Shown here one piece after another: positions 7,327 through 21,754 of a stretch of 55,678 bases of DNA. The position numbers were made by a program, and so were the translations under genes. Source of the stretch: Gammaproteobacteria bacterium (GTDB lineage: Bacteria; Pseudomonadota; Gammaproteobacteria; JACCYU01); assembly GCA_013696315.1 (NCBI GenBank), contig JACCYU010000078.1, positions 1 to 55,678 of the forward strand, written 5' to 3'. Every line of letters starts with the position of its first letter. Within the stretch, counting starts at the first letter, position 1. The notes beneath the pieces are model-generated. The model saw only the letters and a list, made by a program, of their open reading frames with translations. It made no database searches and had not been told where the DNA came from.

Positions 7327-7859
7327 TGCATCCGGAGGGCGCCGTCCTGGACCTCGGCTGCGGCGACAACAAGTATCCGGGCAGCGTCGGTGTCGATCAC
7401 TATCCTTTCGACGGCGTGGATCTGGTTGCGAACCTGGACCACACACCCTGGCCGCTGGCTGCTGATGGCTACGACCACATCATCGTGAGCCACCTGATCG
7501 AGCACGTGACAGACATTCCGGCTTTCATGAACGAGGTGCATCGCGTTGGCCGACACGGGGCGCTGGTGGAGGTCACGACGCCGCATTTCTCCTCCCATGA
7601 TTCCTACCAGGACCCGACGCATCGCTGGCATCTGGGCACGCTGTGGCCCCAGATATTCTGCCAGGGTTATCTGCGCAGCCGGGTCGCGCCCTTCAGTATG
7701 GTCTCGGTGGATGTCAGCTTCGGAAAGAACCTGCGCTACTGGTTTCCAAAGCTCGCAATCAGGGCCAAGGGCCTGGGGTGGTGGGAAAAGAATTATGCTT
7801 TCGTTTATCCCGGGCGCGACATGATCACCCGCTTACGAGTGGAAAAGCCCGCGGTTTGA
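7323..7859 (+). CDS. class I SAM-dependent methyltransferase
   Basis: 178 aa with motif I VLDLGCGDN and a Methyltransf_11-like core. ATGA start/stop overlap with the ligase gene. Confidence 0.75.
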   Translation: MMHPEGAVLDLGCGDNKYPGSVGVDHYPFDGVDLVANLDHTPWPLAADGYDHIIVSHLIEHVTDIPAFMNEVHRVGRHGALVEVTTPHFSSHDSYQDPTHRWHLGTLWPQIFCQGYLRSRVAPFSMVSVDVSFGKNLRYWFPKLAIRAKGLGWWEKNYAFVYPGRDMITRLRVEKPAV

Positions 7860-7878
7860 CGTCGGGCCATTTCGCGCC

Positions 7879-8970
7879 ATGCGCCTGTGCCTGGAGTTAA
7901 CCGCCGTATGCCGTCCCGTACGCACCGGCATCGCTCGCTATGCCGAGCATCTGGCGCGGGCAATGGTCGCGGAAGTCGCCGCCGGCGACCGTGCCGATAC
8001 CATTGCCTGCGCCTATCGTCTCTCGCGTTGGCCGCGGCGTCACCTGCGACTGTCGTTGGCGGAGATAAGGTCAATCTGGATTCAGGAACCCTGGTGGCCC
8101 GTGCGGCCTGCTTTCGACCTCGTCCACGGGCTAGACGCGCGCGTGCCAGACTGGAAACACGTCAAAAAGGTCGCTACGGTGCATGATCTATTTTCGCTGC
8201 ATCCCGAGGCGCAAACCCCGGAGGATGCAAGGGAGCGCACCTTGGCCCGGTACCGGTGGCTGGCGCGCATCAGCGATCGGATCATCTGCCCCAGCGAGAG
8301 CACGCGCTCGGATTTTCTAGCCAGGTTCGAGTTTCCACCCGACAGCGTCGAAGTGATCCATCTGGGGGTCGAACCGGGCTTTGCCGCGCCCGCTCCGCGC
8401 GCGCTTGCGCGCTGGCGGCGCGAGCAGGGCTTCGAGCGCGACTATATTCTGTTCGTCGGAGAGTTCGGGCGGCGCAAGAATCTGGCCCGGCTGCTGCGCG
8501 CCTATATACGCTCCGGATTGAGCTCGGCGTACGAGCTGGTTTACGTCGGCCACGACCCGGGCGGCATGCGCGACGGATTCGCGCGAATCATCAATGCTGG
8601 TGGCGTCGCCTCGCGTGTCAGGTTCCCCGGCTACATGACGGGGGCAAACCTGAATTGTCTTTACGCGGCCGCCAGCGCGTTTGCGTTTCCCTCCTTATAT
8701 GAGGGCTTCGGCCTGCCGGTGCTGGAGGCCATGGCCTGTGGCACGCCGGTGCTGACATCGAACCTGAGCGCGACCGCCGAACTCGGCCGCGAGCACGCCG
8801 TGCTGGTGGATCCCTATTCGGAAGCGAGCATCGCAGAGGGATTGTTAAAGGCCGTTAACGTGCCGCTACATGCCCGGCGGGCGGCGATGATATATTCCAG
8901 AAGCTTTACCTGGGCGGAGACCGCGCGAAAGACACACGCGACTTATCGGCAGGCGCTGGGTCGGCATTAG
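7879..8970 (+). CDS. glycosyltransferase family 4 (GT-B, retaining)
   Basis: 363 aa with the E-x7-E region PSLYEGFGLPVLEAMACGTPVLTSN. Confidence 0.85.
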   Translation: MRLCLELTAVCRPVRTGIARYAEHLARAMVAEVAAGDRADTIACAYRLSRWPRRHLRLSLAEIRSIWIQEPWWPVRPAFDLVHGLDARVPDWKHVKKVATVHDLFSLHPEAQTPEDARERTLARYRWLARISDRIICPSESTRSDFLARFEFPPDSVEVIHLGVEPGFAAPAPRALARWRREQGFERDYILFVGEFGRRKNLARLLRAYIRSGLSSAYELVYVGHDPGGMRDGFARIINAGGVASRVRFPGYMTGANLNCLYAAASAFAFPSLYEGFGLPVLEAMACGTPVLTSNLSATAELGREHAVLVDPYSEASIAEGLLKAVNVPLHARRAAMIYSRSFTWAETARKTHATYRQALGRH

Positions 8971-9163
8971 GCGCCGATATTGCTAATTCCAGCGCCTTGC
9001 CGCGATTCTTCCGCCGGCGCACAACCTCCATGAGTGCGGCGCCAAGAGTTCGGGCTTGTGAAAGACCATATACGCGGACCTCGGCTCTGGGATAGGTAGT
9101 ATCGTTACCCGTGGAGATCAGCATCACCAGCGCGCGCGGTCAAGTTAGGTCGGCGTTGCGGTA

Positions 9164-10216
9164 TTATGACGTGCCAAACGTCCGCTTGAAACTGCTAAGG
9201 AACCGCTGAATTTTTATGATCGCCGCGGCTGCCCGGTCGAGGTCAATTGCGCTCATGTCGTGGTCATCAGCGTGCGGCGACGGCGAGAAGGCGAGCCGTC
9301 TGGATGCGTCATTTATCGTTTGCCAGCGCAGCGCGGTCGAGGATTGGCGGCGCGGATAGAACGCCGCGGTCGGGCGGTTCAGCGCGCCGGCGATGTGCAA
9401 TGGCCCGGTGCTGCCGCTGATGAACAGATCGGCAAACGCGATACGGCGCGCGTAATTCACTAGCCCCTCGCGCGAATCGAAAACCACGTGCGCACAGCCG
9501 GCAATCGATGCGGCCAGCTCCCGCGCCCGCGAAAGTTCGCCGGGCCCGGCGCACAACACGAAGACATTGCCATCGTTAGAGGCAAGCCTGGTTGCCAGCG
9601 TGGCGTATTGCGGGATTGAAAGATTCCTGGCCGAGCCGCCGCTGCCGGCATGGATGAAAACCAGCCGCGCATGGTAATCGAAGCCATGTTGCGCCAGTAG
9701 ATCCGCGCGCGCCGCGGCGATCTGCTCGCTGCCGAACTGCAAATAAGGCGGCGCCGCGGGCGGCTTAGGAAGGCGATTCCAAAGGTTCAGCAAATGCTTG
9801 ACCAGATCGACATTGTAGGCGAACTCAGGCTTCTCCGAGCGCGATCGTCGTTGGGTCAAGCGTTGATTGTAGAAAATCTGGGCAAGCTTGGTCGCAGGCG
9901 CGATGCGCACCGGAATCCCCGCGCGCCAGGCGGCCAGGCCGACACGAGAAGTGGAAAATAAAGTTACGATCGCGTCGTAGGCGTTATCGCTGAGCGTCCG
10001 CGTCAGCGCGGAGCCCCGCGGGTCTTCTGCCGGATCGACCACCACGCGGTCAATCCACGGACAGTTTACCGCCAGTGGGCGGGTATACTCCGGCACCAGC
10101 GCGTCGATCCGGCAATCCGGCAGGCTGGTTTTTAACAGCGCAAACGCCGGCCAGGCGAGCATGAAATCGCCGAGCTTGTCGTTGCGAACCACCAGCACCT
10201 TGTGGGTCGGCATCAA
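9164..10216 (-). CDS. glycosyltransferase family 9 (LPS heptosyltransferase family)
   Basis: 350 aa. N-terminus KVLVVRNDKLGDFMLAWPAFALLK, and C-terminal GSTGPLHIAGAL typical of GT9. Confidence 0.8.
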   Translation of the reverse strand: MMPTHKVLVVRNDKLGDFMLAWPAFALLKTSLPDCRIDALVPEYTRPLAVNCPWIDRVVVDPAEDPRGSALTRTLSDNAYDAIVTLFSTSRVGLAAWRAGIPVRIAPATKLAQIFYNQRLTQRRSRSEKPEFAYNVDLVKHLLNLWNRLPKPPAAPPYLQFGSEQIAAARADLLAQHGFDYHARLVFIHAGSGGSARNLSIPQYATLATRLASNDGNVFVLCAGPGELSRARELAASIAGCAHVVFDSREGLVNYARRIAFADLFISGSTGPLHIAGALNRPTAAFYPRRQSSTALRWQTINDASRRLAFSPSPHADDHDMSAIDLDRAAAAIIKIQRFLSSFKRTFGTS

Positions 10217-10346
10217 ACCAGAGTAGCTGATGGAGTATGCGAATCCTAGAGATGTGTCCGTCGCCGGACCAGGGAGGCCTGGAGTTTTCTGCCGGCGCCA
10301 CGGCCGGGGACCTGGCGTGCCACGAACACGGTGTTACCTTAGATTC

Positions 10347-10589
10347 ATGGCCGAATATCGCTTTACTGAATATTTTAACGTACAAGTCCTCCGCAAGCGG
10401 CCATTCCTCAAAAAGGAGTGGTGCATTTACGTTCTGGAAAATGCGGTGCGCGCTGAGCCCCAAGAGCACAATCGATTTCGCTTCTGGGCGGCAGTGCCCG
10501 CGCTTGGCGGCCGATGCTTGAGGGTTATCACGCTTGGGGATAAGGTACCTATTCATAACGCTTTCCCGGTCCGAAAGTTCAAGCCATGA
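10347..10589 (+). CDS. DUF4258-like small protein (putative toxin of a DUF4258/DUF2283 pair)
   Basis: Internal ATG 10347 of track ORF 10230..10589: MAEYRFTEYFNVQVLRKRPFLKKEWC...GGRCLRVITLGDKVPIHNAFPVRKFKP. The L-R-V-(I/V)-T and IHNAF ending match my memory of this family. 4-nt ATGA overlap with the next gene. Confidence 0.6.
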   Translation: MAEYRFTEYFNVQVLRKRPFLKKEWCIYVLENAVRAEPQEHNRFRFWAAVPALGGRCLRVITLGDKVPIHNAFPVRKFKP

Positions 10590-10804
10590 AACTCAATTAC
10601 TATCCTGAAACGGATTCGCTCTATATCGATCTCTCCGAACAGCTCAGCTCAGAGAGCCGGGAGATCTCGGAGGGTGTCGTGCTTGATTATGACGCCCGGG
10701 GAAACCTCGTTGGTATCGACATCGACAATGCCAGCACCAAGGTTGAGCTGAAAGAACTCATCCTCAGCAAGCTACCGGGAAAGGTCGAAATGGTGGCCGC
10801 CTGA
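10586..10804 (+). CDS. DUF2283 domain protein (putative antitoxin partner)
   Basis: 72 aa. MKLNYYPETDSLYIDLSE...VLDYDARGNLVGIDIDNAS is the canonical DUF2283 pattern. Confidence 0.8.
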   Translation: MKLNYYPETDSLYIDLSEQLSSESREISEGVVLDYDARGNLVGIDIDNASTKVELKELILSKLPGKVEMVAA

Positions 10805-11063
10805 CATCGCGCTCTACGGCCGGCTGTCGGTGAGGTCGACGTCATGATCTATGGCGCCGCGCGCTGGCATCGGCATATCGCGAGTCAGATAACGGCAAGT
10901 CGGCGGCGTGAAGGCGTAATTATGTCGCGGGCTGTCTGTAGCCGAGATCGGCCGCTAAAGCTATTCAACATGTAGTTGCAGAGCATGTGGAGGATGCCCA
11001 TCCGTACCAGGTTCGACAAGTGCGAGCGGTGGTTCTGAAATACCACTTAGCGAGTGAACTGTA

Positions 11064-11276
11064 ATGTATCGATACGAGACAATTATCTAATGGAGCGAGG
11101 AAGATCAGTCGTTTATTGCGGAGGCGCCAGAGTTGCCGGGTTGCATGGCGCATGGAGCGTCTCAAGAAGCTGCTTTGGCGAATGCGAAAGATGCAATTCA
11201 ATTGTGGCTGGACACCGCGAAGGAATTCGGCGATCCAATACCAGAACCTAAAGGCCGGCGCCTGATCTATGCTTAA
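11064..11276 (+). pseudogene. hicB: HicB-family antitoxin with an in-frame TAA at codon 9
   Basis: My own translation gives MYRYETII*WSEEDQSFIAEAPELPGCMAHGASQEAALANAKDAIQLWLDTAKEFGDPIPEPKGRRLIYA*. The TAA at 11088-11090 sits where the family has Tyr (IIYWSEEDQ). Confidence 0.7.
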
Positions 11277-11348
11277 AGCACTGCCGGGTGCGAGGACTCG
11301 TGCATCAGTATAGATTCGATATTACGAAAGCATCACCGACGACAGGCT

Positions 11349-11555
11349 ATGCATATCCTGACTATTTCTTCCAAGTTCCAGGTCGTTATCCGTAAAGAAG
11401 TTCGCGAATCTCTCAAGCTCCCTCCCGGCCAGAAGGTTCAAATCGTCCTGTTGGAAAACCGGACCGAGCTTATTCCCGTGCGCCCGCTCACGGAGATGAA
11501 GGGCTTTCTCAAAGGCATCGATACCGACGTTCCGAGAGAGCAAGACAGGACGTGA
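11349..11555 (+). CDS. vapB: AbrB/MazE/SpoVT-type antitoxin (VapB-like)
   Basis: 68 aa. MHILTISSKFQVVIRKEVRESLKLPPGQKVQIV is a typical SpoVT-AbrB swapped-hairpin N-terminus. It lies directly upstream of a PIN-like ORF. Confidence 0.8.
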   Translation: MHILTISSKFQVVIRKEVRESLKLPPGQKVQIVLLENRTELIPVRPLTEMKGFLKGIDTDVPREQDRT

Positions 11556-11921
11556 ATGTTGTCGTCGGGTTGGCTTGAGTATTTCGCATCTGGGCCTAAT
11601 GCCGATTTTCTTCGCAACCGCCATAAAGCCGACGGAGGAACTTCTTGTCCCGACTGCAAGCCTCTACGAAATTTTTTTAAACGTATTCTTCAGCAGCGCG
11701 GTGAAGGCGACGCCTTGCAAGCGGTTGCGCTGATGCAGCAAGGCATTGTTGTCGTGCCCACGGCTTCCCTGGCCTTAACCACCGCGCGGCTGAGCTGTGG
11801 GGAGTTGGCCTTGGCTCTCGTCTGGCTGATCATAGGTCAGCCTAAAATTGCAGGTGAAGAATTTATTCTGCTCGTGACCGGAATGATTGATATGACCGTT
11901 GGCTTAGACGACACTCTATAG
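11552..11921 (+). pseudogene. vapC: PIN-domain VapC-like toxin, apparently decayed
   Basis: SGWLEYFASGPNAD and KRILQQRGEGDALQAVALMQQG match a VapC subfamily. The GTG(11552) frame stops after 8 codons. The ATG(11556) frame lacks the N-terminal catalytic Asp. Between T-runs 11606-11609 and 11672-11678 the family-like sequence FFATAIKPTEELLVPTASLYEIF is in the +1 frame. The C-terminal third is unlike the family. Confidence 0.6.
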
Positions 11922-12183
11922 CTCAACTTGTCGTCTATATTTGGTAGGAGGTTTTGTGGCCTAAACAGCAACGGAAAGCTCGCATTCCAAAATTATGCGC
12001 CTATATGCGTGTTTCTTGGTATTGGTGTGTCGTAGATAAGGCACCTTTGCAGTAGAAGATGTACCACATCGAGCTAATTTCAACGCCTGTATTGCGGAAA
12101 TGCGGGATCGAGAACGTACCGTCGATAAAAATAATAAATGCGGCCAGTAGCGGAGAGGGGCTTGAAGGCGGTGGAGAACCGTA

Positions 12184-13692
12184 GTGGGTTTTGCGGAGTT
12201 GCTACATGAAGTCGACCGGTTAGCGGCCTGCGGTCAGTTGCGGGCAGCGGCCGAAGTCTTGGAGGAGTCAATCGCCCAATCGGGCCGCGATCCGCGTCTT
12301 CTGCGGGCACTTGGCCGGTTGTATCTGCTTGAGCATCGCGCCCACAATGCTGTCAGTATCCTACAAGAAGCCCTCGAACTTCAGCAGCGTGGTCGAATTC
12401 ACGCGTTTCAGGTCGGGCACGAGGAAGTGTCTGCTTTGGACATGGATTACTTAGCAGAACAGGATAGCGCCGCAAGTGGGGTGCGGCTTCAGGAACACGT
12501 CAGCCAGCAGATCCTCGATCAGTCGTCAGATCAGCCCGTAAGTCGGGGCTTGATCGAAATCCAACGCGGTCCGGACACGCTAAGTGTTTCCAATTATCCT
12601 CCGCAACCTGCCTCGCGTTTCGACAGCACCCCCGGTGACCACCAGAGCGATTCACCGAACGACACTTCGTGCCTGCAACAAGACCTCGATGTGCCTTTCG
12701 AGAATGAGCGTCAAATGCGGATCGCGGAGACAAAGATGGCCGCCCTCAGCCTTGATGCATTCAAGGAGGCACTTTACCCGCAAGGCGAGCTCGACTTTGA
12801 GGTTGATGACGAACAAGTCCTGCCCGCATTCGACGATGTTGAATTTCAAGAGTTTCCTGAAGAGCTTGCGTCTCAGAGCGCGTTCTACTACCCGTCCGAC
12901 CAGACCGACGAAGTTGATCCCTACCTAGTCGACATTGAAGAGCTGATCGACGACATCTCAGAAGACGCTGATGAGGAACCTTTACCCCGGGGCGTCACGC
13001 GAGAGCAACGCGCGTTACAAGTCGCCGCAGAATTTCTTGAGCGAGTCGGCTGGGATCGAGAGCACCTACGTCCTTTGCAAGACTTCTTCGTTCGATACGG
13101 CTGGTCCATGGCGCGCGTCGCGCTGGAGAGAGAAATTGAAAAAGGACTCGATCCAGAAGAGTTCCCCATTGCCCTCAGACTGAGAGAAATCTGGGCGGAA
13201 AACGAGCGCTACTGGACGGCATTCTTCTATCCGCCTCAAGCCAAAGATTGCTACCGAGTCATGTCATGGTCGATGGCGATTCTGATCGTTCGCTCCGTCC
13301 CCGGTATTCCGTTCGAGGAGGAACTTGAGCTGTTTGTCGAGAACGAGTTCGATACCTGGTACAGCAGCGACAGTCTTCGTCGTCAGTTCTGCGCGTTCAT
13401 CAAGTATCTCTATTTCCGCGTCGCAGGCGGCAATTGGACGCTGCACCCTTTCTGTCCGGTCAACTTCCCAGAACCTCGTTCAGAAGATTTTGATGATGCG
13501 TCTGATCTAGGATTGACGGATTTGGTGGGTGCCGAAAGACGAAGCATCTTGATGCGATTGGGGGTGCGAATCCATCAATCGAGTACTGATCTAGATTCTC
13601 GTTACACTGGGCATCCGCACATATTGGCGGCAATAGCGCAGGGCGACTACACCGGTCGTGACCATATTACACGGAGCCTAGAAGATGAATGA
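12184..13692 (+). CDS. hypothetical protein: helical/TPR-like N-terminus, extremely acidic middle, unrecognised C-terminal domain
   Basis: 502-aa ORF with a GTG start, preceded by 262 bp of AT-rich non-coding DNA. Residues 201-266 have 26 D/E and no K/R. Its stop overlaps the start of the SNF2 gene by 8 nt (ATGAATGA). Confidence 0.7.
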   Translation: MGFAELLHEVDRLAACGQLRAAAEVLEESIAQSGRDPRLLRALGRLYLLEHRAHNAVSILQEALELQQRGRIHAFQVGHEEVSALDMDYLAEQDSAASGVRLQEHVSQQILDQSSDQPVSRGLIEIQRGPDTLSVSNYPPQPASRFDSTPGDHQSDSPNDTSCLQQDLDVPFENERQMRIAETKMAALSLDAFKEALYPQGELDFEVDDEQVLPAFDDVEFQEFPEELASQSAFYYPSDQTDEVDPYLVDIEELIDDISEDADEEPLPRGVTREQRALQVAAEFLERVGWDREHLRPLQDFFVRYGWSMARVALEREIEKGLDPEEFPIALRLREIWAENERYWTAFFYPPQAKDCYRVMSWSMAILIVRSVPGIPFEEELELFVENEFDTWYSSDSLRRQFCAFIKYLYFRVAGGNWTLHPFCPVNFPEPRSEDFDDASDLGLTDLVGAERRSILMRLGVRIHQSSTDLDSRYTGHPHILAAIAQGDYTGRDHITRSLEDE

Positions 13693-16504
13693 CCTACCAC
13701 TACCAGTATCCGGTTGCTGGGTGCGTGATCGAGAGGAGGGTCGCGCAGACCGACTTGGTATAGTCCGCATGACCGTTCCGCATGATAACGACCCGAAGGC
13801 CAAGGTCGAGTGGTTGAAACCGGATCGCCGGCAATCAATAGTGCCCGTTTCCCAGCTCAGCTGCGGGTTCGGGCTCCGCATGGAGGTGCTTGAAGCGGGC
13901 GGTGGGACTGGGCGCCAGTCGCTGGGTTACGGAGGGATCATCGGCCTGCGAAAACTGGGCAACCGCGAGCAGGTGCTTGTCGACTTCCCGGAGACAGGCA
14001 AGCGCGCATGGCTGCCATATCAGAACCTACGACAGGTCAAGGGCCCGCGTCACCGGTTCATTACGGGTGATACTGGAGACAAAGACTCTCCTGAGCGATT
14101 CAGGCTGAAGGTGCTGGCTCACGCTCTAGAGATTTGGAACGAGAACACCGGAGCTCTGTCGCACCTCGACATAGACCCGCTGCCCCACCAAATCCACCTC
14201 GTTCATCACATTCTCGCCTCGGGCAATCTCAATTGGCTTATCGCCGACGACGTCGGTCTCGGCAAGACGATCGAAATGGGGATGCTGCTGGCCGCGCTGC
14301 AGCAGCGCGAACTGTTAGGTCGAGTGCTACTCATCACGCCGGCTGGTCTCACTAAGCAATGGAAGGACGAGCTCTACTACAAGTTTGGTTTTGAAGGCTT
14401 TGAAATCTACGGCGAGGACTTTTTCATCAACGAGCCTCGCCAGTGGAAGATGCACGACTTCGTCATCGGCTCCATGGATAAACTCAAGCAGGAGACCGAT
14501 CTAAACAGTCTTCTGCATGCGCCGAATTGGGACCTGGTGATCGTGGATGAGGGCCACCGTCTGAGCCGCAGGCAATATGGCATGCGCTACGACTACTCGG
14601 AGCGATTCCAACTTGCACAGGTACTCCGAAGCAGAACCCGCTCGATTGTCCTGCTTACTGCCACGCCGCATCAAGGTATGCAGGACAAATTTATCGCGCT
14701 ACTCGAATTGCTTCGTCCAGAACGCAAAGAGGAGTTACAAACGCTCACGCTTAACCCTGAGATCATTAGCGAGATGGTCTACCGAAATTACAAAGCCGAT
14801 GTGACCGATGCCGTGGGCAACTTCGTCTTTAAGGGCAAGCAGACTCGCACAATTCGAGTGCATCCCAGCGAACAGGCTGTGACGTTCGACCGAGCCCTGC
14901 AGAAGTACCTTCGGCGCGGCTATGCGGCAGGCGGAAACACCGGCGGCACGGCCGGGCGCGCAATTGGGTTCGTGATGACCATCTACCGCAAGCTCGCCGC
15001 GTCTAGTTCGGCGGCGATACTCAACGCGCTCCTAAGACGTAGAGAGCGACTGATTAATGCAAGCGGTGGACAAACTGAAGAGCTGCCGATTGACGAACGT
15101 TATGCCGGCGAATGGGAAGAGCAACAAGAAGCTACGGGGCGAGCATTTTTTGAAGGCGAACTTGCGCTATTAGACCAGCTCATTCAGGGCGCCAAGAGCC
15201 TAAAGCAGCATGACAATAAGCTGTGTGGATTCTGCGACCAGATCATCGGCCAGATCTTGGTCAGCAACCCAAAGGAAAGGGTTTTGATCTTCACTGAGTA
15301 TCGCGGCACTCAGGACTATCTTCGGGAAGAACTCGTGGAGCGGTATGGTGAGCAATGCGTGAGGCTCATACACGGCTCGATGGATCACGAGGAGCGGCGA
15401 CAAGCAATCCAGTATTTCGAGGCAGAGGGCCAGTTCCTGATCTCAACGGAGGCGGGCGGCGAAGGAATCAACCTCCAGCGCCGCTGCCACGTGATGGTGA
15501 ACTACGACTTGCCATGGAATCCTATGCGGCTCGTTCAGCGCGTCGGTCGTCTCTACCGATATGGCCAGGAGATGCCCGTCGTTGTGTTCAACCTCCATGT
15601 AACCGGGACGGTGGACGAAGACATCATTGATCTCATGTATCGACGGCTAAACGCGGTCGTGGCCGATCTGGCGACGGTGTCTCGGCACGAATATAACGAG
15701 CGGCTGGCAGAAGACGTCCTCGGCGAGGTGGCGGAACTGCTCGACGTCGGGACCGTATTAGTGGCAGCAACGGAATCGGGCATTCAGCGGACTCAGCAAC
15801 GTATCGATGAAGCCCTTAAAAAAGCCCGCGGGTCAGCACAGAAGCAGCGCGAGCTATTTGAGCATGCCGCGCGGTACGATGAGGAAGAGTTGGCTGAGAA
15901 TTTACAGATCACTGATCAACACGTCCAAGCGTTTGTGTTCGGCATGTTTAGGCTTATAGGCGTGGAGATCATAGAGATGCTCCACAACAACAAAGTGCTC
16001 AAGATTCGCCTGCCGGACGCCATCCGAAACGAGCTCGGCATGAAGGCGGCGCGTATGGACATTACCTTCGACCGCCTGCTGGCGTCGAATCGCGCTAACA
16101 CTACAATGATGGACCTGACTGCACCGTTCATGACCTATCTAGTGCGCGTGGCAAAGTCCTACGACTTCGGGGGACAATGCGCAGTCATTAAGGCGCTTAC
16201 CGGTGAGTCTGTTCTCACGGCATTATTGCGCTGGCAGGACGATCAGGGTCGGCGCATGCGGCAGTCTTTTAGCGTGTTCAGGCTGGACGGACAATCCGTG
16301 GAAACCAACCCTGCCGAGTTTGGCGTCTGGCTGCTGAGTGAAGCCGTGTCAGGCCATGCTGAGGTCACCCGAGAGCGAAACGAGTCCCTGATGAAACTGG
16401 CCGAGCGTGCCGCCAACGAGGCTCTTGCAGCCGCCAGTAATCGGTATTTGCATCCCGAGAATCTTCAGTGGCTGGCAGGCGGTTGGTTAGCTGTATCAGA
16501 ATAA
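13685..16504 (+). CDS. SNF2-family ATPase/helicase with RapA(HepA)-like architecture
   Basis: 939 aa. Motifs seen: LPHQ; Walker A ADDVGLGKT (14255-14269 covers GLGKT); DEGH (14546-14557); LLTATPHQG; FLISTEAGGEGINLQ; NYDLPWNPMRLVQRVGRLYRYGQ. The N-terminal ~120 aa form two Tudor/SH3-like repeats, with LGYGGIIGL...VLVDFPETGKRAWLPYQNLRQV resembling the RapA N-terminus. The C-terminal region contains ITFDR, as RapA does. Confidence 0.88.
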   Translation: MNDLPLPVSGCWVRDREEGRADRLGIVRMTVPHDNDPKAKVEWLKPDRRQSIVPVSQLSCGFGLRMEVLEAGGGTGRQSLGYGGIIGLRKLGNREQVLVDFPETGKRAWLPYQNLRQVKGPRHRFITGDTGDKDSPERFRLKVLAHALEIWNENTGALSHLDIDPLPHQIHLVHHILASGNLNWLIADDVGLGKTIEMGMLLAALQQRELLGRVLLITPAGLTKQWKDELYYKFGFEGFEIYGEDFFINEPRQWKMHDFVIGSMDKLKQETDLNSLLHAPNWDLVIVDEGHRLSRRQYGMRYDYSERFQLAQVLRSRTRSIVLLTATPHQGMQDKFIALLELLRPERKEELQTLTLNPEIISEMVYRNYKADVTDAVGNFVFKGKQTRTIRVHPSEQAVTFDRALQKYLRRGYAAGGNTGGTAGRAIGFVMTIYRKLAASSSAAILNALLRRRERLINASGGQTEELPIDERYAGEWEEQQEATGRAFFEGELALLDQLIQGAKSLKQHDNKLCGFCDQIIGQILVSNPKERVLIFTEYRGTQDYLREELVERYGEQCVRLIHGSMDHEERRQAIQYFEAEGQFLISTEAGGEGINLQRRCHVMVNYDLPWNPMRLVQRVGRLYRYGQEMPVVVFNLHVTGTVDEDIIDLMYRRLNAVVADLATVSRHEYNERLAEDVLGEVAELLDVGTVLVAATESGIQRTQQRIDEALKKARGSAQKQRELFEHAARYDEEELAENLQITDQHVQAFVFGMFRLIGVEIIEMLHNNKVLKIRLPDAIRNELGMKAARMDITFDRLLASNRANTTMMDLTAPFMTYLVRVAKSYDFGGQCAVIKALTGESVLTALLRWQDDQGRRMRQSFSVFRLDGQSVETNPAEFGVWLLSEAVSGHAEVTRERNESLMKLAERAANEALAAASNRYLHPENLQWLAGGWLAVSE

Positions 16505-16780
16505 AGGATGCTGGTTAGAAAGCAGCACGAACGAGAAGACAAAAGGGGACGTCATAGTCATCGTATCGGCGCTGCTCAGTCGCGCTTTGCCCGTCGATAC
16601 GTTTAATGTGCTCTTGGCTGTCCGTCAGCAATAAGCCTCGCCCTCAAACCGTCGGCACAGTGGTAGGTGAGTGCCGGCTGCGTGTTAGGTGGCTTGCAGC
16701 AGACTGAATGGGAGCGTTAAGCTTCTAGCTGATAGCTGGGCCGGTCATCTCAGTCGCGCCTGCCCGCGAGCGCTCCCATT

Positions 16781-16808
16781 CGATCATGCGCGTCCGATCA
16801 TGCGCGTC
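16781..16808. repeat. perfect 14-bp tandem duplication (CGATCATGCGCGTC x2)
   Basis: Read directly: 16781-16794 equals 16795-16808. It lies about 100 bp upstream of hldE. Confidence 0.95.
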
Positions 16809-16902
16809 GCGGCTGCGCTTGAATTACGCGATCGCTTCGTCCAGTGGCCTGAGAACAATCGATCGTATAAGCTGATTCCGCTTAACCGAACCCACTGACT
16901 GC

Positions 16903-18330
16903 ATGCGACTTTCAATTCCGGGTTTCTCTAACGCCCGAGTGCTGGTGGTCGGCGACCTGATGCTTGACCGCTACTGGTATGGCGCGACCTCCCGGATCTC
17001 ACCCGAGGCGCCGGTGCCGGTCATCAATGTCGGCGAGGAGGAAGAGCGTGCGGGCGGCGCGGGCAATGTAGCGCTGAATGTTGCGGCACTGGGCGGCGCC
17101 GTTACCCTGATCGGCTTCACCGGTGACGATCAGGCGGCGACCTCGCTCAAGGCGCTGCTGGAACGCGACGGCGTGCGCTGTCATTTCATCACTGTCGCAC
17201 AGCGCACGACCAGCACCAAGTTGCGCGTGATCAGCCGCCATCAGCAGTTGATCCGCCTGGATTTCGAGGATGGTTTCGCGGATGTCGATCAGGCAGCGCT
17301 TGCAGGCTCGTACACGCGCAACCTGGCGACGCATGATCTCGTGATCCTGTCCGATTACGGTAAAGGCGCCTTACGCGACGTTAAATCGCTCATTGAACAT
17401 GCTCGGCGTGCCGGCAAGCCGGTGTTGGTCGATCCGAAAGGTGCGGATTTCGGACGCTATCGCGGCGCCACAGCCATCACTCCGAATCAGGCCGAATTCG
17501 AGGCGGTGACGGGAATTTGCGCGAACGACGTTGAGATGACCGCGAAAGGGCAGCGTCTGCTCGCCGATCTCGAGCTGGAGGCGCTGCTCGTTACTCGCAG
17601 CGAAAAAGGCATGCTTTTGTTGCGTGTCGGCTCGCCGCCGCTGGCATTTCCCACTCATGCCAGCGATGTATTCGACGTCACGGGCGCCGGCGATACCGTG
17701 ATCGGCGTGCTGGGCGCAGCGCTCGCGGTCGGGACGTCTATGCCGGAGGCGGTCGCGCTTGCGAACCTGGCGGCTGGTGTGGTGGTGCGCAAGCTCGGCA
17801 CGGCCACCGCGTCTTTGCGCGAACTTCAGACCGCGATGCTGAAGCATGAGCCCCTGCAACGCGGCCTGGTGACCGAAGTAGCGCTGGTGGCGTTGCTGGA
17901 GAAGGCGCGCGCCAGCGGCGAGAGAGTGGTGATGACCAACGGGTGTTTCGATATCCTGCACGCGGGTCACGTGGCTTATCTCTCGCAGGCCGCGCAGCGG
18001 GGTGATCGGCTGGTGGTGGCGGTTAACGATGACGACTCGGTGCGACGCCTGAAGGGGTCGAATCGGCCGGTCAATCCGCTGATGCAGCGCATGGCGGTGC
18101 TGGCCGGGCTGGAAAGCGTAGACTGGGTGGTCTCGTTTGCCGAGGATACGCCGCGGCGGCTGATCGAGGCGTTGAGTCCCGACACTCTAGTCAAGGGCGG
18201 CGATTATCGACCGGACGACGTGGAGGGCGGCGACTGGGTGCGCGCGCACGGCGGCGAGGTCATCGTATTGGATTACATCGACGGGTGTTCCACCAGCGCG
18301 ATCATCGCCGCCATACGCAAAGGCATCTGA
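16903..18330 (+). CDS. hldE: bifunctional D-beta-D-heptose 7-phosphate kinase / heptose 1-phosphate adenylyltransferase
   Basis: 475 aa. Ribokinase-like N-domain (DVTGAGDTV) plus cytidylyltransferase C-domain ([12 protein letters not shown]). Confidence 0.95.
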
Positions 18331-18335
18331 AACGC

Positions 18336-19298
18336 ATGATTATCGTAACCGGCGGCGCCGGCTTTATCGGCAGCAACATAGTCCGGGCTCTCAACGCACG
18401 GAGTCGCGCCGACATTCTGGTGGTCGACCACTTGCGCAACGGCGCCAAGTTCATGAATCTCGCCGACTGCGACATTTACGATTATCTGGACAGGGACGAT
18501 TGCTTGCGGCGCGTACACGATGGCAAAGCGTTCGCCGGCGCCATCGACGCCGTGTTTCATCAGGGGGCGTGCGCGACCACCACGGAGTGGGATGGCCGCT
18601 ACATGCTGGAAAACAACTACGAATACTCCAAAGCGCTGCTGCATTACTGCATGGGACGTGACGTGCCGTTCATCTACGCCTCATCGGCCTCGGTGTACGG
18701 CAGGGGTCCGGACTTCAAGGAAGAGCGCCGCCACGAGCGACCGGTAAACGTTTACGCCTACTCAAAGTTTCTGTTCGACCAATACGTGCGCCGCGCGCTT
18801 GTATCGGCGCGCAGCCAGATCGTCGGCCTGCGTTATTTCAACGTGTACGGGCCGCGCGAGCAGCACAAGGGCGCGATGGCGAGCGTCGCCTTTCACTTCA
18901 ACCGGCAGGTGCTGGAAACCGGCAGAATCCGACTGTTCAGCGGCTCTGACGGTTACGCCGACGGTGAGCAGCGCCGGGATTTTATCTATGTGGACGACGT
19001 GGCCGAAGTGAATCTATGGTTGCTGGGGCATCCGGCGATCTCGGGGATCTTCAACCTCGGCACCGGCCGCAGCCAGACGTTCAATGAGGTGGCGCGCGCG
19101 GTGACCAGCTATCACGGCTTCGGTGACATCGAGTACATCCCGTTCCCGGACGCGCTCAAGGGTCGTTACCAGAGTTTTACTGAAGCCGATATGGAGCACT
19201 TTCGCGAGGCGGGGCTTATTCATCGCTTCAGGCCGGTGGAGGAAGGGGTGCCGCTCTATCTCGATGCGCTGAACAAGGGGCCGCGTAACGCATCATGA
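18336..19298 (+). CDS. hldD: ADP-L-glycero-D-manno-heptose 6-epimerase
   Basis: Internal ATG 18336 of track ORF 18285..19298: [16 protein letters not shown]. Catalytic YAYSKFLFD is present. The start lies 5 nt after the hldE stop. Confidence 0.93.
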
Positions 19299-19326
19299 TG
19301 CGCCACATCGGCGCTCGGGTTGTGCG

Positions 19327-20385
19327 GTGACAGGCCCGGAGCGCGTGCTGGTGGTGGGTCCAGCGTGGGTCGGCGACATGATCATGGCGCAGACGCTGTT
19401 CAAGCTCTTGCGCCGCCAGCACCCGGAAATCGAGATCGACGTGCTGGCGCCGGCCTGGTCGGCGCCGCTGCTGGCGCGCATGCCGGAGGTGCGCGAAGCG
19501 GTGCAGGTGCCGCTGGGACACGGTGAGTTACGCTTGCGCACGCGTTATCGACTGGGCCGCGAACTCGCGCGGCGCGGATATCACCAGGCGCTGATCCTGC
19601 CGCGTTCTTTCAAATCGGCCATTATTCCCTGGTTTGCGAGGGTGCCACGCCGCACGGGGTATCTGGGTGAGAGCCGTTACGGCGTGATCAATGATCGGCG
19701 GCCGCTGGACCCGGCGGCCATGCCGCTAGTGGTGCAGCGTTACGCGGGTCTGGGGCTTGCGCCGGGCGCGTGCGCGCCGCCGCTGGAAGAGCTGCCGCGG
19801 CCGGCCCTGACAGTGGACGAGGTCAATGGCTTGCGGCTGGTCGCGCAACTGGGTCTTTCCGCGACCGGGCCGGTGGTCGGGTTAATGCCCGGCGCGGAGT
19901 ACGGGCCCGCCAAGCAATGGCCACCGGATTACTATGCCGCCCTGGCGCGGCGTCTGGCGGAAAATGGCGTGCAAACCTGGGTGCTCGGGTCGCAAAAGGA
20001 TTTCGAGCTTGGCGAGTCTATCGTTATGCAATCCAGACTGGGTTTAACTGCGGGTAGCGTGAATCTGTGCGGCAAAACACAAATGCACGATGCCATCGAT
20101 CTGCTCGCGCGCGTGCAGGTTGCGGTGACCAACGATTCCGGTCTCATGCACGTGGCCGCCGCGGTGGGCGTGCCGCTGGTGACGCTCTATGGTTCATCCA
20201 CGCCCGCTTACACGCCGCCGTTGTCCGCACGCGCGACGATTATGTATCTGAACGTCGCGTGCAGTCCCTGTTTCGACCGCACCTGCCGCTTCGGGCATTA
20301 CAATTGTCTGCGCGATATCGCCGTAGCCGACGTATTCAACGCAACCTGCCGACAGCTCGTTTCGAGCTCAGACGGTCGCCATTGA
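19327..20385 (+). CDS. waaF: ADP-heptose:LPS heptosyltransferase II
   Basis: 352 aa with a GTG start. VLVVGPAWVGDMIMAQTLFKLL...LILPRSFKSAIIPWFARVPRRTGYLGE is WaaF-like. Confidence 0.88.
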   Translation: MTGPERVLVVGPAWVGDMIMAQTLFKLLRRQHPEIEIDVLAPAWSAPLLARMPEVREAVQVPLGHGELRLRTRYRLGRELARRGYHQALILPRSFKSAIIPWFARVPRRTGYLGESRYGVINDRRPLDPAAMPLVVQRYAGLGLAPGACAPPLEELPRPALTVDEVNGLRLVAQLGLSATGPVVGLMPGAEYGPAKQWPPDYYAALARRLAENGVQTWVLGSQKDFELGESIVMQSRLGLTAGSVNLCGKTQMHDAIDLLARVQVAVTNDSGLMHVAAAVGVPLVTLYGSSTPAYTPPLSARATIMYLNVACSPCFDRTCRFGHYNCLRDIAVADVFNATCRQLVSSSDGRH

Positions 20386-20426
20386 TCGTGGCAAGGCGCA
20401 AGGCGCTGATATTGCGTATCGGAAAC

Positions 20427-21512
20427 ATGATAAACAAACTTGCTACAAACAGCCCCGCGGTTGCAAACAGACACTTCGTGTTGAGCCGGCCGGACAGCAT
20501 TGGCGATGTGGTGCTGACCCTGCCCATGGCTGGCGTGCTGAAAGCGGCGTTCCCCGGTTGCCGCGTTTCGCTGCTGGGACGCAACTATACCCGACCGCTG
20601 GCGCTGGCTTGCGAACACTTGGACGGCGTGTACGCATGGGACGAGATCGAGTCCACGCCGCATGTCGAGCAGGTCGCGCAGTTCAGGGCAATGGGCGCGG
20701 ACGCGATTTTCCACGTGCTGCCAAAACCAGAGATCGCGCGGCTCGCCAAAGCTGCTCAAATCCCGCTGCGCATCGCGACCTCGCGACGCATGTCACACTG
20801 GCTGACCTGCAACCGGCTGGTGTATCTGCACCGGCATCATTCGCCGCTGCATGAAGCCCAGTTAAATCTGAAACTGTTGCGCGGCGTGGGTTTGCGCGAT
20901 ACGTACAGCCTCGACGAGATGCGCGACTGCTTCGGGCTGAACATCGTGCCCCAGCTGCGGCCGGCGCTGGCCGCCGCGATCGATCCTGAGCGTTTCAATC
21001 TGATCGTGCACCCCAAGTCCGGCGGCACCTCGCGCGAGTGGCCGATCGAGCATTTCGCGGCGCTGATCGGGAACCTGCGCGCGGCGCGCTTCAATGTTTT
21101 CGTCACCGGCAGCCACAGGGAGGCGGAACAGGTCCGATCCAGCCTGCCCATGCACCTGCCGCACGTGCACGACGTTATGGGGCGGCTCATGCTGACCGAC
21201 CTGATCGCGCTGATGCACCGGGTCGATGGGCTGCTTGCGGCCAGTACGGGGCCGCTGCATATGGCCGCCGCCATCGGCCTGCACGTGGTTGGTCTCTACG
21301 CGCCGGTGGGCTCCAAGCACGCGGGTCGCTGGGGGCCGATCGGCCCCAGAACCAGCGTTTTTCAGCTCCCGGAGAAATGCTCGCTATGTCGCCGATCCAA
21401 TGTTTGCGCGTGCATGCGGCGCATCACGTCCGCCGAGGTCAGCGCTTATCTGTGCGGCCTCGCGCGACCGGCCACGACCGATGGCGTCGCAACCACGCCG
21501 GCCCGGCGGTAA
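20427..21512 (+). CDS. glycosyltransferase family 9 (heptosyltransferase family)
   Basis: Internal ATG 20427 of track ORF 20067..21512. The upstream part overlaps waaF out of frame. FVLSRPDSIGDVVLTLPMAGVLK and STGPLHMAAAIGL are GT9 motifs. Confidence 0.8.
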   Translation: MINKLATNSPAVANRHFVLSRPDSIGDVVLTLPMAGVLKAAFPGCRVSLLGRNYTRPLALACEHLDGVYAWDEIESTPHVEQVAQFRAMGADAIFHVLPKPEIARLAKAAQIPLRIATSRRMSHWLTCNRLVYLHRHHSPLHEAQLNLKLLRGVGLRDTYSLDEMRDCFGLNIVPQLRPALAAAIDPERFNLIVHPKSGGTSREWPIEHFAALIGNLRAARFNVFVTGSHREAEQVRSSLPMHLPHVHDVMGRLMLTDLIALMHRVDGLLAASTGPLHMAAAIGLHVVGLYAPVGSKHAGRWGPIGPRTSVFQLPEKCSLCRRSNVCACMRRITSAEVSAYLCGLARPATTDGVATTPARR

Positions 21513-21754
21513 GCGCCGTGCGCAAACTGCGCCGTGGCGAGCCGGGTCATGCCGCCGCGGCGCATGGACCGAGACGGCAGGAACGGTTGTGAAAAGTTAT
21601 CTGGGCCAGGATTATCGAATTTAGTGCCGTCCGGTGCTAAAGTTCCGCTCTCGCGGGATGCAGGGCCTGAAACTGGCCGCAGCCGCGGGAGTGCTCGTCT
21701 TAATAATATTGGCCGAATGTCGGTCCACCGCGCCCGAGGGAGCGTTGCCATAAC

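Follow-up and report, generated by a model that had tools for sequence, protein, structure and literature searches.

We analyzed a 55,678-nucleotide stretch of a Gammaproteobacteria bacterium genome (contig JACCYU010000078.1, assembly GCA_013696315.1; hereafter, the window), which carries on its plus strand 2 overlapping genes that we refer to as the G1-SNF2 pair. Gene 1 (G1, 12184-13692) has a GTG start and is an intact open reading frame (ORF) of 502 amino acids (aa), and gene 2 (SNF2, 13685-16504) has an ATG start and is an intact ORF of 939 aa encoding a predicted RapA-like SNF2 ATPase. The TGA stop of G1 and the ATG start of SNF2 overlap by 8 nt (13685-13692, plus strand, GAAGATGAATGA), and a GGAG Shine-Dalgarno sequence is located at 12173-12176, 7 nt 5' of the GTG. 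An AT-rich leader of 262 bp (11922-12183, plus strand, 46.6% GC), presumed to hold the promoter, precedes G1 and contains no ORF of 50 aa or more wholly inside it. The gap 3' of the SNF2 gene is 398 bp long (16505-16902), and its first part (16505-16797, plus strand) is the non-coding tail of a genomic islet, with homology to an islet-free relative (L096) resuming at 16798. When recomputed, the ORF coordinates, the 8-nt overlap, the 262-bp AT-rich leader, and the downstream gap of about 400 bp were all as given in a first-pass annotation of this DNA, which had proposed the 2 genes as a candidate defense-like system. Co-transcription of the pair is proposed because of the junction geometry and not because of detected promoter or terminator signals; the single sigma-70-like match in the leader (12108-12135) is no better than those in shuffled sequence.

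The association of the 2 genes extends well beyond the window. We fetched 80 loci with SNF2 from references holding one genome per species and scanned them with the G1 hidden Markov model. A G1-family ORF was identified directly 5' of SNF2 on the same strand in 78 of the 80 loci, and the remaining 2 are contig ends with less than 200 bp 5' of SNF2. In the reverse test, SNF2 was located 3' of all 6 G1 relatives tested (P0001, P0002, P0003, P0126, P0272, and P0246), and the first 3 neighborhoods collected with SNF2 each had a Pfam-less gene of 510-558 aa 5' of SNF2 that proved to be a G1 homologue. Chance adjacency or a spurious ORF is ruled out by this adjacency and by the confidently predicted fold of G1. 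Across 84 non-redundant loci, the median stop-start distance was 8 nt; 35 junctions overlap, most commonly by 4 nt, and 25 more are separated by 20 nt or less (60 of 84 together). The tight junction is a trait of the family, and G1 and SNF2 form one obligate, tightly coupled 2-gene operon.

Some pair loci also contain SNF2 genes with no G1 partner, which had clustered with the family by BLAST. We rejected these as members and assigned them to a separate BrxHII-like family, as they share 27% identity with SNF2 over the core alone and do not align in the N- and C-terminal regions. In loci L021 (9361-16116), L037 (6606-14038), and L064 (12863 onwards), such a gene (approximately 968 aa, with an acidic N-terminus) adjoins a 1533-aa Eco57I/MmeI-like methyltransferase a few kb from the pair, and these second-SNF2 cassettes resemble ARMADA or BREX-related cassettes.

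G1 (12184-13692, plus strand, 502 aa) is predicted to combine a repeat module, an acidic linker, and a novel C-terminal domain. Residues 1-76 (12184-12411) form 2 tetratricopeptide repeats (TPR) with a predicted local distance difference test (pLDDT) score of 94-98. Residues 114-267 (12523-12984) form a disordered polyacidic linker (26% D+E, 5% K+R, isoelectric point [pI] 4.05), residues 268-420 (12985-13443) an all-alpha C-terminal domain that is the invariant core of the family (pLDDT mostly >90), and residues 421-502 (13444-13689) a lower-confidence tail with a conserved SDLGLTD motif (440-446), all on the plus strand. In the structure model, which was built on a 60-sequence alignment, linker residues 115-246 have a pLDDT of <50. 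By composition, 13.2% of the last 235 aa are W, F, or Y. Approximately 62 residues of the TPR module superpose on TPR structures with a root-mean-square deviation of about 1.1 Å in Foldseek, and consensus TPR proteins are among the matches of the family profile, with values down to 5.6e-55. The window G1 alone reaches 18.9 bits with Pfam TPR_19 vs a cut-off of 25, which is sub-threshold, and 34 of 60 members match TPR_19; the TPR assignment is solid at the family level. Composition, family profile, and model thus agree with the TPR-like N-terminus, acidic center, and W/F/Y-rich C-terminal part described at first pass.

The TPR module was present in 105 of 152 G1 family members and the C-terminal domain in all 152. 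The linker was net acidic in each of 148 members, with a median of 26% D+E vs 7% K+R, and the 60 aa preceding the C-terminal domain had 38% D+E across the family. The invariant residues of the C-terminal domain (A281, A330, W337, S361, W362, P376, and W392) are aromatic or structural and not catalytic.

We searched the window G1 against Pfam, NCBIfam, PADLOC, and PHROGs, which gave nothing beyond the sub-threshold TPR match and no PADLOC match at E ≤ 1, so the earlier statement that G1 has no recognized family holds for these libraries. Fold and profile searches returned TPR matches alone, with no match to the C-terminal domain in PDB or BFVD, and no Pfam or PADLOC model covered this domain in 60 diverse members. 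These 60 members gave 2 weak PDC-M71B matches (best 4e-4) and 1 weak BrxC match in PADLOC, and TPR-type families with a few isolated weak matches in Pfam. A word-indexed protein search with G1 found 3 relatives, and its profile version added none, probably as acidic low-complexity words swamp the word index. An exhaustive profile search identified a family of 538 clusters (50% identity) at E ≤ 1e-3, with 390 clusters at E ≤ 1e-10. G1 diverges much faster than SNF2, with 30% identity in L003 vs a highly similar SNF2, and 77% vs 85% in L002. On the megaplasmid pDATS01 of Deinococcus aquaticus (L091, 5051-8998), the partner is 1315 aa long and shares the C-terminal domain alone (1158-1275, E 1e-25), the TPR and acidic linker being replaced by coiled-coil repeats and an extended proline-rich segment; therefore, the N-terminal part of the partner is swappable. 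Taken at the level of sequence and predicted fold, G1 represents a new protein family whose C-terminal domain has no known relative.

The second gene (13685-16504, plus strand, 939 aa) is predicted to begin with 2 five-stranded small beta-barrels, a tandem Tudor-like N-domain at residues 1-120 (13685-14044, pI 9.6) whose barrels span residues 12-60 and 67-117 in the model. The bilobed Swi2/Snf2 ATPase core at residues 158-660 (14156-15664) contains the Walker A lysine K194, DEGH at 288-291, and the motif VI sequence QRVGRLYRYGQ, and residues 744-935 (15914-16489) form 2 alpha+beta C-terminal domains of the RapA/BrxHII type (pLDDT 80-92), all on the plus strand. The core matched PF00176 (SNF2-rel_dom) with 62.2 bits vs a cut-off of 24.9 and PF00271 (Helicase_C) with 80.1 vs 23.5, and the GLGKT, DEGH, and QRxGRxxRxGQ motifs were invariant across the SNF2 clade. 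No nuclease or methylase domain was found in library scans, nor any conserved nuclease motif. A complete motif set with no nuclease or methylase, as reported at first pass, is hence borne out by the Pfam matches and motif residues. Hundreds of SNF2 relatives were found at 56-60% identity.

RapA is the closest solved protein to SNF2 by sequence (3e-41), and hhalign aligned SNF2 158-851 with RapA 147-818 at 27% identity and a probability of 99.9. Foldseek ranked full-length RapA first (3.7e-30), with N-truncated RapA at approximately 1e-24 and ISWI and CHD1 at approximately 1e-17 to 1e-16, and the Pfam RapA_C match was sub-threshold (E 0.017-0.058). The alignment, the structure model, and the structural search all agree with the earlier RapA-like assignment over the whole fold, and we describe gene 2 as a predicted Swi2/Snf2 ATPase that resembles RapA throughout. 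The N-domain is basic in the SNF2 clade (median pI 9.5, 82% above 8, n = 71), with a pI of 4.46 in E. coli RapA and approximately 4.7 in the G1-less paralogues. The occurrence of a basic N-domain only together with the acidic-tailed partner is suggestive of contact between the two, or of competition between the tail and nucleic acid for this surface.

The pair lies in an islet of 6.6 kb (10230-16797) with 55.0% GC vs 62.1% and 62.2% in the flanks. The islet interrupts a lipopolysaccharide (LPS)-core locus: one flank carries waaL, a methyltransferase, GT4, and GT9, and the other hldE and hldD. These data uphold the atypical GC content (55.0% vs 62%) and the insertion into an LPS/receptor locus flanked by waaL and hldE that had been noted before. 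A metagenomic relative, L096, has 85-88% nucleotide identity to the window solely from 16798 rightwards; it carries an unrelated glycosyltransferase 5' of hldE, and the islet is absent. In L097, waaL is located directly 5' of hldE, as an empty site. Because L096 and L097 have no islet at the same site, we consider the pair a lineage-specific insertion.

We identified 120 tblastn-confirmed matches to the pair in a collection with one genome per species (185,579 species), a patchy distribution covering Gammaproteobacteria, Desulfobacterota, Bdellovibrionota, Cytophagales, Thermoanaerobaculia, UBP9, and Deinococcus. Plasmid copies numbered 4 among 72,556 plasmid records, and no relative was found among 50,697 phage records. 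In L008 (1738-6271), the pair, together with BrxR, a type I restriction-modification (RM) system, and a Schlafen/AlbA-type gene, is located directly 3' of TnsA-like, Mu-transposase-C, TniB, and TniQ genes, and is therefore taken as cargo of a Tn7-like transposon. The metagenome-assembled genome (MAG) of Motiliproteus sp. ES15-01 harbors 2 copies of the pair on different contigs (L015 and L028), each with a type III-like Mod gene 3' of it. RefSeq labels the 2 proteins 'hypothetical protein' and 'helicase-related protein'. The pair is an accessory, horizontally mobile unit and not a core locus.

The first-pass annotation had itself raised the possibility of a universally conserved core locus, such as the only rapA of the organism. 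We rejected the housekeeping rapA, as SNF2 scored 200.6 bits vs the NF003426 equivalog cut-off of 576, the site is empty in a relative of 85-88% identity, and the N-domain has the opposite charge; the patchy distribution likewise disagrees with a core locus. A related explanation is that the pair consists of a specialized RapA paralogue and its own regulator and acts in transcription, recycling RNA polymerase or rescuing it in stresses such as high salt. Sensitivity to salt is known for E. coli rapA mutants, many hosts of the pair are marine organisms or halophiles (Marinobacter, Vreelandella, Spiribacter, Salinisphaera, and Nitrosococcus halophilus), the likeness to RapA covers the whole fold including the tandem Tudor N-domain, and in L005 the pair is found among housekeeping genes. 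We nevertheless regard this explanation as very unlikely, the least probable of those weighed here, given a score far under the RapA equivalog cut-off, an N-domain charge opposite to that of RapA, a patchy distribution across phyla, a low-GC islet with an empty site in a close relative, Tn7 cargo and plasmid copies, and the defense-rich neighbors described below.

Mobility also raises an explanation in which the pair serves the element that carries it, either as an anti-defense or anti-restriction device with an Ocr-like DNA-mimic tail or in the maintenance of the element or exclusion of competing ones. The Tn7-like cargo, the plasmid copies, the universal polyacidic linker, and the frequent adjoining of RM systems would fit such a role. 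However, the phage records contained no homologue, PHROGs had none for G1, the plasmid copies are rare, and the majority of copies are found on chromosomes and are not accompanied by element genes. The DNA-mimic anti-restriction proteins known so far are, moreover, small, folded, and motor-free, and we consider service to a mobile element quite improbable.

Several further features of the islet and of its nearest copy were observed. L001 (MAG GCA_051001175.1) is 99.66% identical to window positions 9679-21000, and a single gap at approximately 6900-7040 of L001 frameshifts SNF2 after '...AVSGHA', replacing the last ~45 residues and giving a 917-aa product. Unlike L001, the window has an intact SNF2 that follows the family as far as the C-terminus; the frameshift reflects either an error of assembly or a gene that was inactivated recently. 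The left edge of the islet (10230-10804) contains a 119-aa ORF with no family match and a 72-aa DUF2283 gene (E 1.8e-17) that share 4 nt, in what looks like a toxin-antitoxin layout. At 11349-11921 on the plus strand, a 68-aa ORF (phrog_10557, 3.9e-18) and a 121-aa ORF (phrog_9972, 3.4e-13), both matching phage families of unknown function, abut each other and may be a second toxin-antitoxin-like or a prophage-derived pair. The other strand has an overlapping 100-aa ORF (11322-11624), which gave no match and is probably spurious.

We clustered the genes neighboring the pair, and G1 and SNF2 were the sole conserved genes. In approximately 9-11 of the 84 loci, the pair is followed in one orientation by a gene for a type III-like Mod (~930 aa) at +1 and one for a Res-like helicase (~1050 aa) at +2. 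Other recurrent neighbor families included type I HsdM/HsdS/HsdR, BrxR, Mrr, and DISARM DrmA/DrmB, along with a PglW/MkoA-like kinase, a NERD helicase, an Eco57I-like methyltransferase, and a HEPN-like protein, so that the recurrent families are almost all defense genes. Single examples were a Nitrosococcus plasmid with Dsr1, an HNH gene, and a restriction endonuclease near the pair, and a locus with DarTG and a ZorA-like gene. Among 82 immediate neighbors, 208 PADLOC families were matched at E ≤ 1e-10, a count of families and not of neighbors with a match. The neighborhood analysis proposed at first pass thus found the tested G1 relatives always 5' of this SNF2 clade and the neighbors to be mostly defense genes, and the mobile distribution and these neighbors support the mobile, defense-like context put forward there, with the function itself left to inference.

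In some lineages, the pair is part of larger gene arrays. In the Pseudomonas loci L012 and L029 (~7700-21600), G1, SNF2, Mod (~930 aa), a Res-like gene (~1050 aa), a 114-aa gene, and a 745-aa PglW/MkoA-like kinase gene follow one another in one orientation, with a divergent BrxR 5' of the cluster, which may be a composite system around the pair. In L044 and L077, G1 and SNF2 share one strand with a NERD-UvrD-type helicase, DrmA, DrmB, and 2 genes of ~390 and 556-559 aa; this array is DISARM-like, and the pair occupies the place of DrmD. In 5 Alcanivoracaceae loci (L047, L049, L053, L063, and L064), a 218-aa protein is encoded directly 5' of G1 (position -2), and it is also found near the pair in 2-3 other loci. 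This protein has an R-x4-H motif and a weak HEPN_RiboL-PSP match (E 0.006).

These arrays bear on whether the pair is a helper cassette for modification-based immunity (type III or type I RM, or DISARM), as BrxHII is in BREX or DrmD in DISARM, with solo copies being orphaned remnants or acting in trans with RM systems located elsewhere. The G1>SNF2>Mod>Res order in one orientation at ~9-11 of 84 loci and the G1>SNF2>NERD-helicase>DrmA>DrmB order in L044 and L077 speak for a helper, as do the best PADLOC and NCBIfam matches of SNF2 (BrxH, DrmD, and HmaA) and the fact that all characterized relatives act inside multi-gene systems. However, most loci have no such partner beside the pair, and the partner that is always retained is G1 and not a methyltransferase. 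On the SNF2 tree, the Mod/Res-linked loci fall into 2 subclades, with solo pairs dispersed among them, and every deep branch is solo. No relative of Mod/Res, Hsd, Drm, BrxR, PglW-like, or Mrr proteins was found in the 55 kb of the window, where the copy is solo. On balance, a non-autonomous helper role of the pair seems to us rather unlikely.

Considering the linkage, mobility, and neighbors together, we think it probable that the pair is a defense module in a broad sense. The complete explanation that we favor, to which we give a little better than an even chance, is that the obligate operon is a self-contained, mobile, nuclease-free anti-phage module consisting of a motor and a regulatory partner. 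According to this explanation, G1 and SNF2 would form a physical complex, in which the motor, by analogy with RapA and Mot1, would be a double-stranded DNA translocase that pushes or strips a DNA-bound protein machine rather than cutting DNA. G1 would be the non-catalytic regulatory and sensing subunit, with its all-alpha C-terminal domain docking on the helicase and its polyacidic linker mimicking nucleic acid; the linker would fill the DNA groove or the clade-specific basic tandem-Tudor N-domain and hold the motor inactive. The variable N-terminal TPR may read an infection cue, such as a phage or host peptide, and lift this brake, after which the freed ATPase would remodel or evict a complex needed by the invader. 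RNA polymerase on the invading DNA is the leading candidate target because of the RapA-like fold, and in some lineages the motor may feed an adjacent type III RM or DISARM system. An autonomous transcription-targeting immunity, in which the TPR-released motor ejects host or phage RNA polymerase and the acidic tail, as a DNA mimic, gates the motor or plugs the polymerase channel, is to our minds a doubtful proposition in that specific form.

Several observations weigh against a self-contained anti-phage module. The defense role is assigned through guilt by association with neighboring genes, and a labeled defense neighbor within 6 genes was found in at least 34 of the 84 loci, a figure that comes with no background rate. 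Many loci, including the window, have no recognizable effector, and the L005 copy is surrounded by housekeeping genes. Promoter and terminator scans performed no better than on shuffled sequence. The acidic-brake idea is drawn from composition alone, and both structure models are moderate overall, with a mean pLDDT of ~69 for G1 and 69.5 for SNF2, the N-domain, core, and C-terminus of the latter being well predicted.

BREX, DISARM, Hma, ARMADA, and ietHAS all include RapA-like SNF2 helicases. With one obligate non-catalytic partner and no methylase, nuclease, or other ATPase, the pair is the simplest setting in which to ask what such a motor does in immunity, and the joint conservation of an acidic tail and a basic N-domain offers a concrete autoinhibition hypothesis. 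Should the pair protect against phages, it would be a widespread system overlooked by PADLOC v2 and NCBIfam 20.0. Should the motor act by eviction, a protein-machine eviction in place of nucleic-acid cleavage or NAD/nucleotide depletion would be new for SNF2 defense helicases and a clue to the action of BrxHII, DrmD, and ArmA.

No paper describing the pair was found in full-text searching. The nearest trace is a figure legend in the CoCoNuT paper that names 'TPR', 'SWI2/SNF2', 'Mod/Res', and 'STK' among the ancillary genes of Pseudomonas defense superoperons and gives no analysis of them. As no library model or paper searched describes the pair, the earlier view of it as undescribed stands, and so does the view that known SNF2 systems (of those named there, DISARM, Zorya, and Hna) differ from it in their partners or fused nucleases. 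BREX and Hma differ from it as well, as follows.

RapA (HepA) is the best sequence and structural match of SNF2 and has the same domain order and a similar length (968 vs 939 aa), and neither protein has a nuclease. It differs in that SNF2, with 200.6 bits vs 576, is not an orthologue, in its acidic N-domain (4.46) compared with the basic one of the SNF2 clade (9.5), and in its position as a core gene next to rluA with no G1-like partner, whereas the pair is accessory and mobile. The SNF2 model fits the published architecture of RapA, BrxHII, and BREX-related helicases, which comprises Tudor, Swi2/Snf2, inactive restriction endonuclease-like, and alpha+beta C-terminal domains, with a tandem Tudor in RapA (PMC12839542). 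BrxHII resembles SNF2 as an SNF2 motor used in immunity with a RapA-parallel architecture (PMC12839542), and BrxHI|BrxHII was the top PADLOC match of SNF2 (1.2e-89), followed by HmaA (8.7e-85) and also DrmD. In contrast to SNF2, with its tandem barrel and an obligate G1 that BREX and Hma lack, BrxHII has only one Tudor domain and acts together with PglZ, BrxC, and PglXI. The pair is flanked by small ORFs and LPS genes, with no adjacent large ATPase, phosphatase, or methyltransferase, PglZ and BrxC not having been searched for across the whole window.

HmaA carries a PD-(D/E)xK nickase fused to the helicase, and its partners are HmaB and HmaC (PMC11232893), whereas SNF2 stops after 939 aa, has RapA-type domains at its C-terminus, and shows no conserved nuclease motif; against the HmaA profile (1176 positions), the better of 2 matched stretches covers positions 99-399. 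DrmD is the best NCBIfam match of SNF2 (NF038317, 8.5e-93), and DrmA/DrmB are found beside the pair in 3 of 84 loci, but SNF2 reaches 312.4 bits vs a cut-off of 610, and DrmD has no G1-type partner. DrmA, DrmB, and DrmMI are missing from the window and from most loci, and no relative of DrmA or DrmB was found in the window. Membership of the pair in DISARM, BREX, or Hma is rejected by scores below the cut-off, absent partner genes or nuclease, or both. Zorya ZorD profiles match the Helicase_C lobe of SNF2 alone (526-658), and membership in Zorya (as ZorD) or Hna, whose Snf2-type helicases are fused to an Mrr-like or other nuclease, is rejected, as SNF2 has no nuclease domain.

Mot1/BTAF1 is a eukaryotic Swi2/Snf2 protein that strips TBP from DNA; it has a helical-repeat recognition module and no nuclease and is thought to displace a DNA-bound protein. 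The likeness to the pair is a functional analogy alone, with no homology claimed beyond the ATPase core, and the repeat module is fused in Mot1 and carried here on a separate polypeptide with a polyacidic linker. Closer in setting are ArmA (ARMADA type II; BrxHII-like with a RapA-type domain) and IetH (ietHAS; DrmD-like), SNF2 helicases of experimentally tested anti-phage systems (PMC12458937; PMC13069673), of which IetH requires its Walker A and DEAH motifs (PMC13069673). Their partners, which the pair lacks, are ArmB, ArmC, and ArmD or the IetA ATPase and IetS protease, and neither has a protein with TPR, acidic linker, and G1-type C-terminal domain. Judged from its sequence, SNF2 belongs to the group of helicases formed by RapA, BrxHII, DrmD, HmaA, ArmA, and IetH. 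The pair would embody a new principle only if eviction is shown, and we infer that, within this group, it is an SNF2-helicase-based defense module that is minimal in architecture and whose obligate partner is new.

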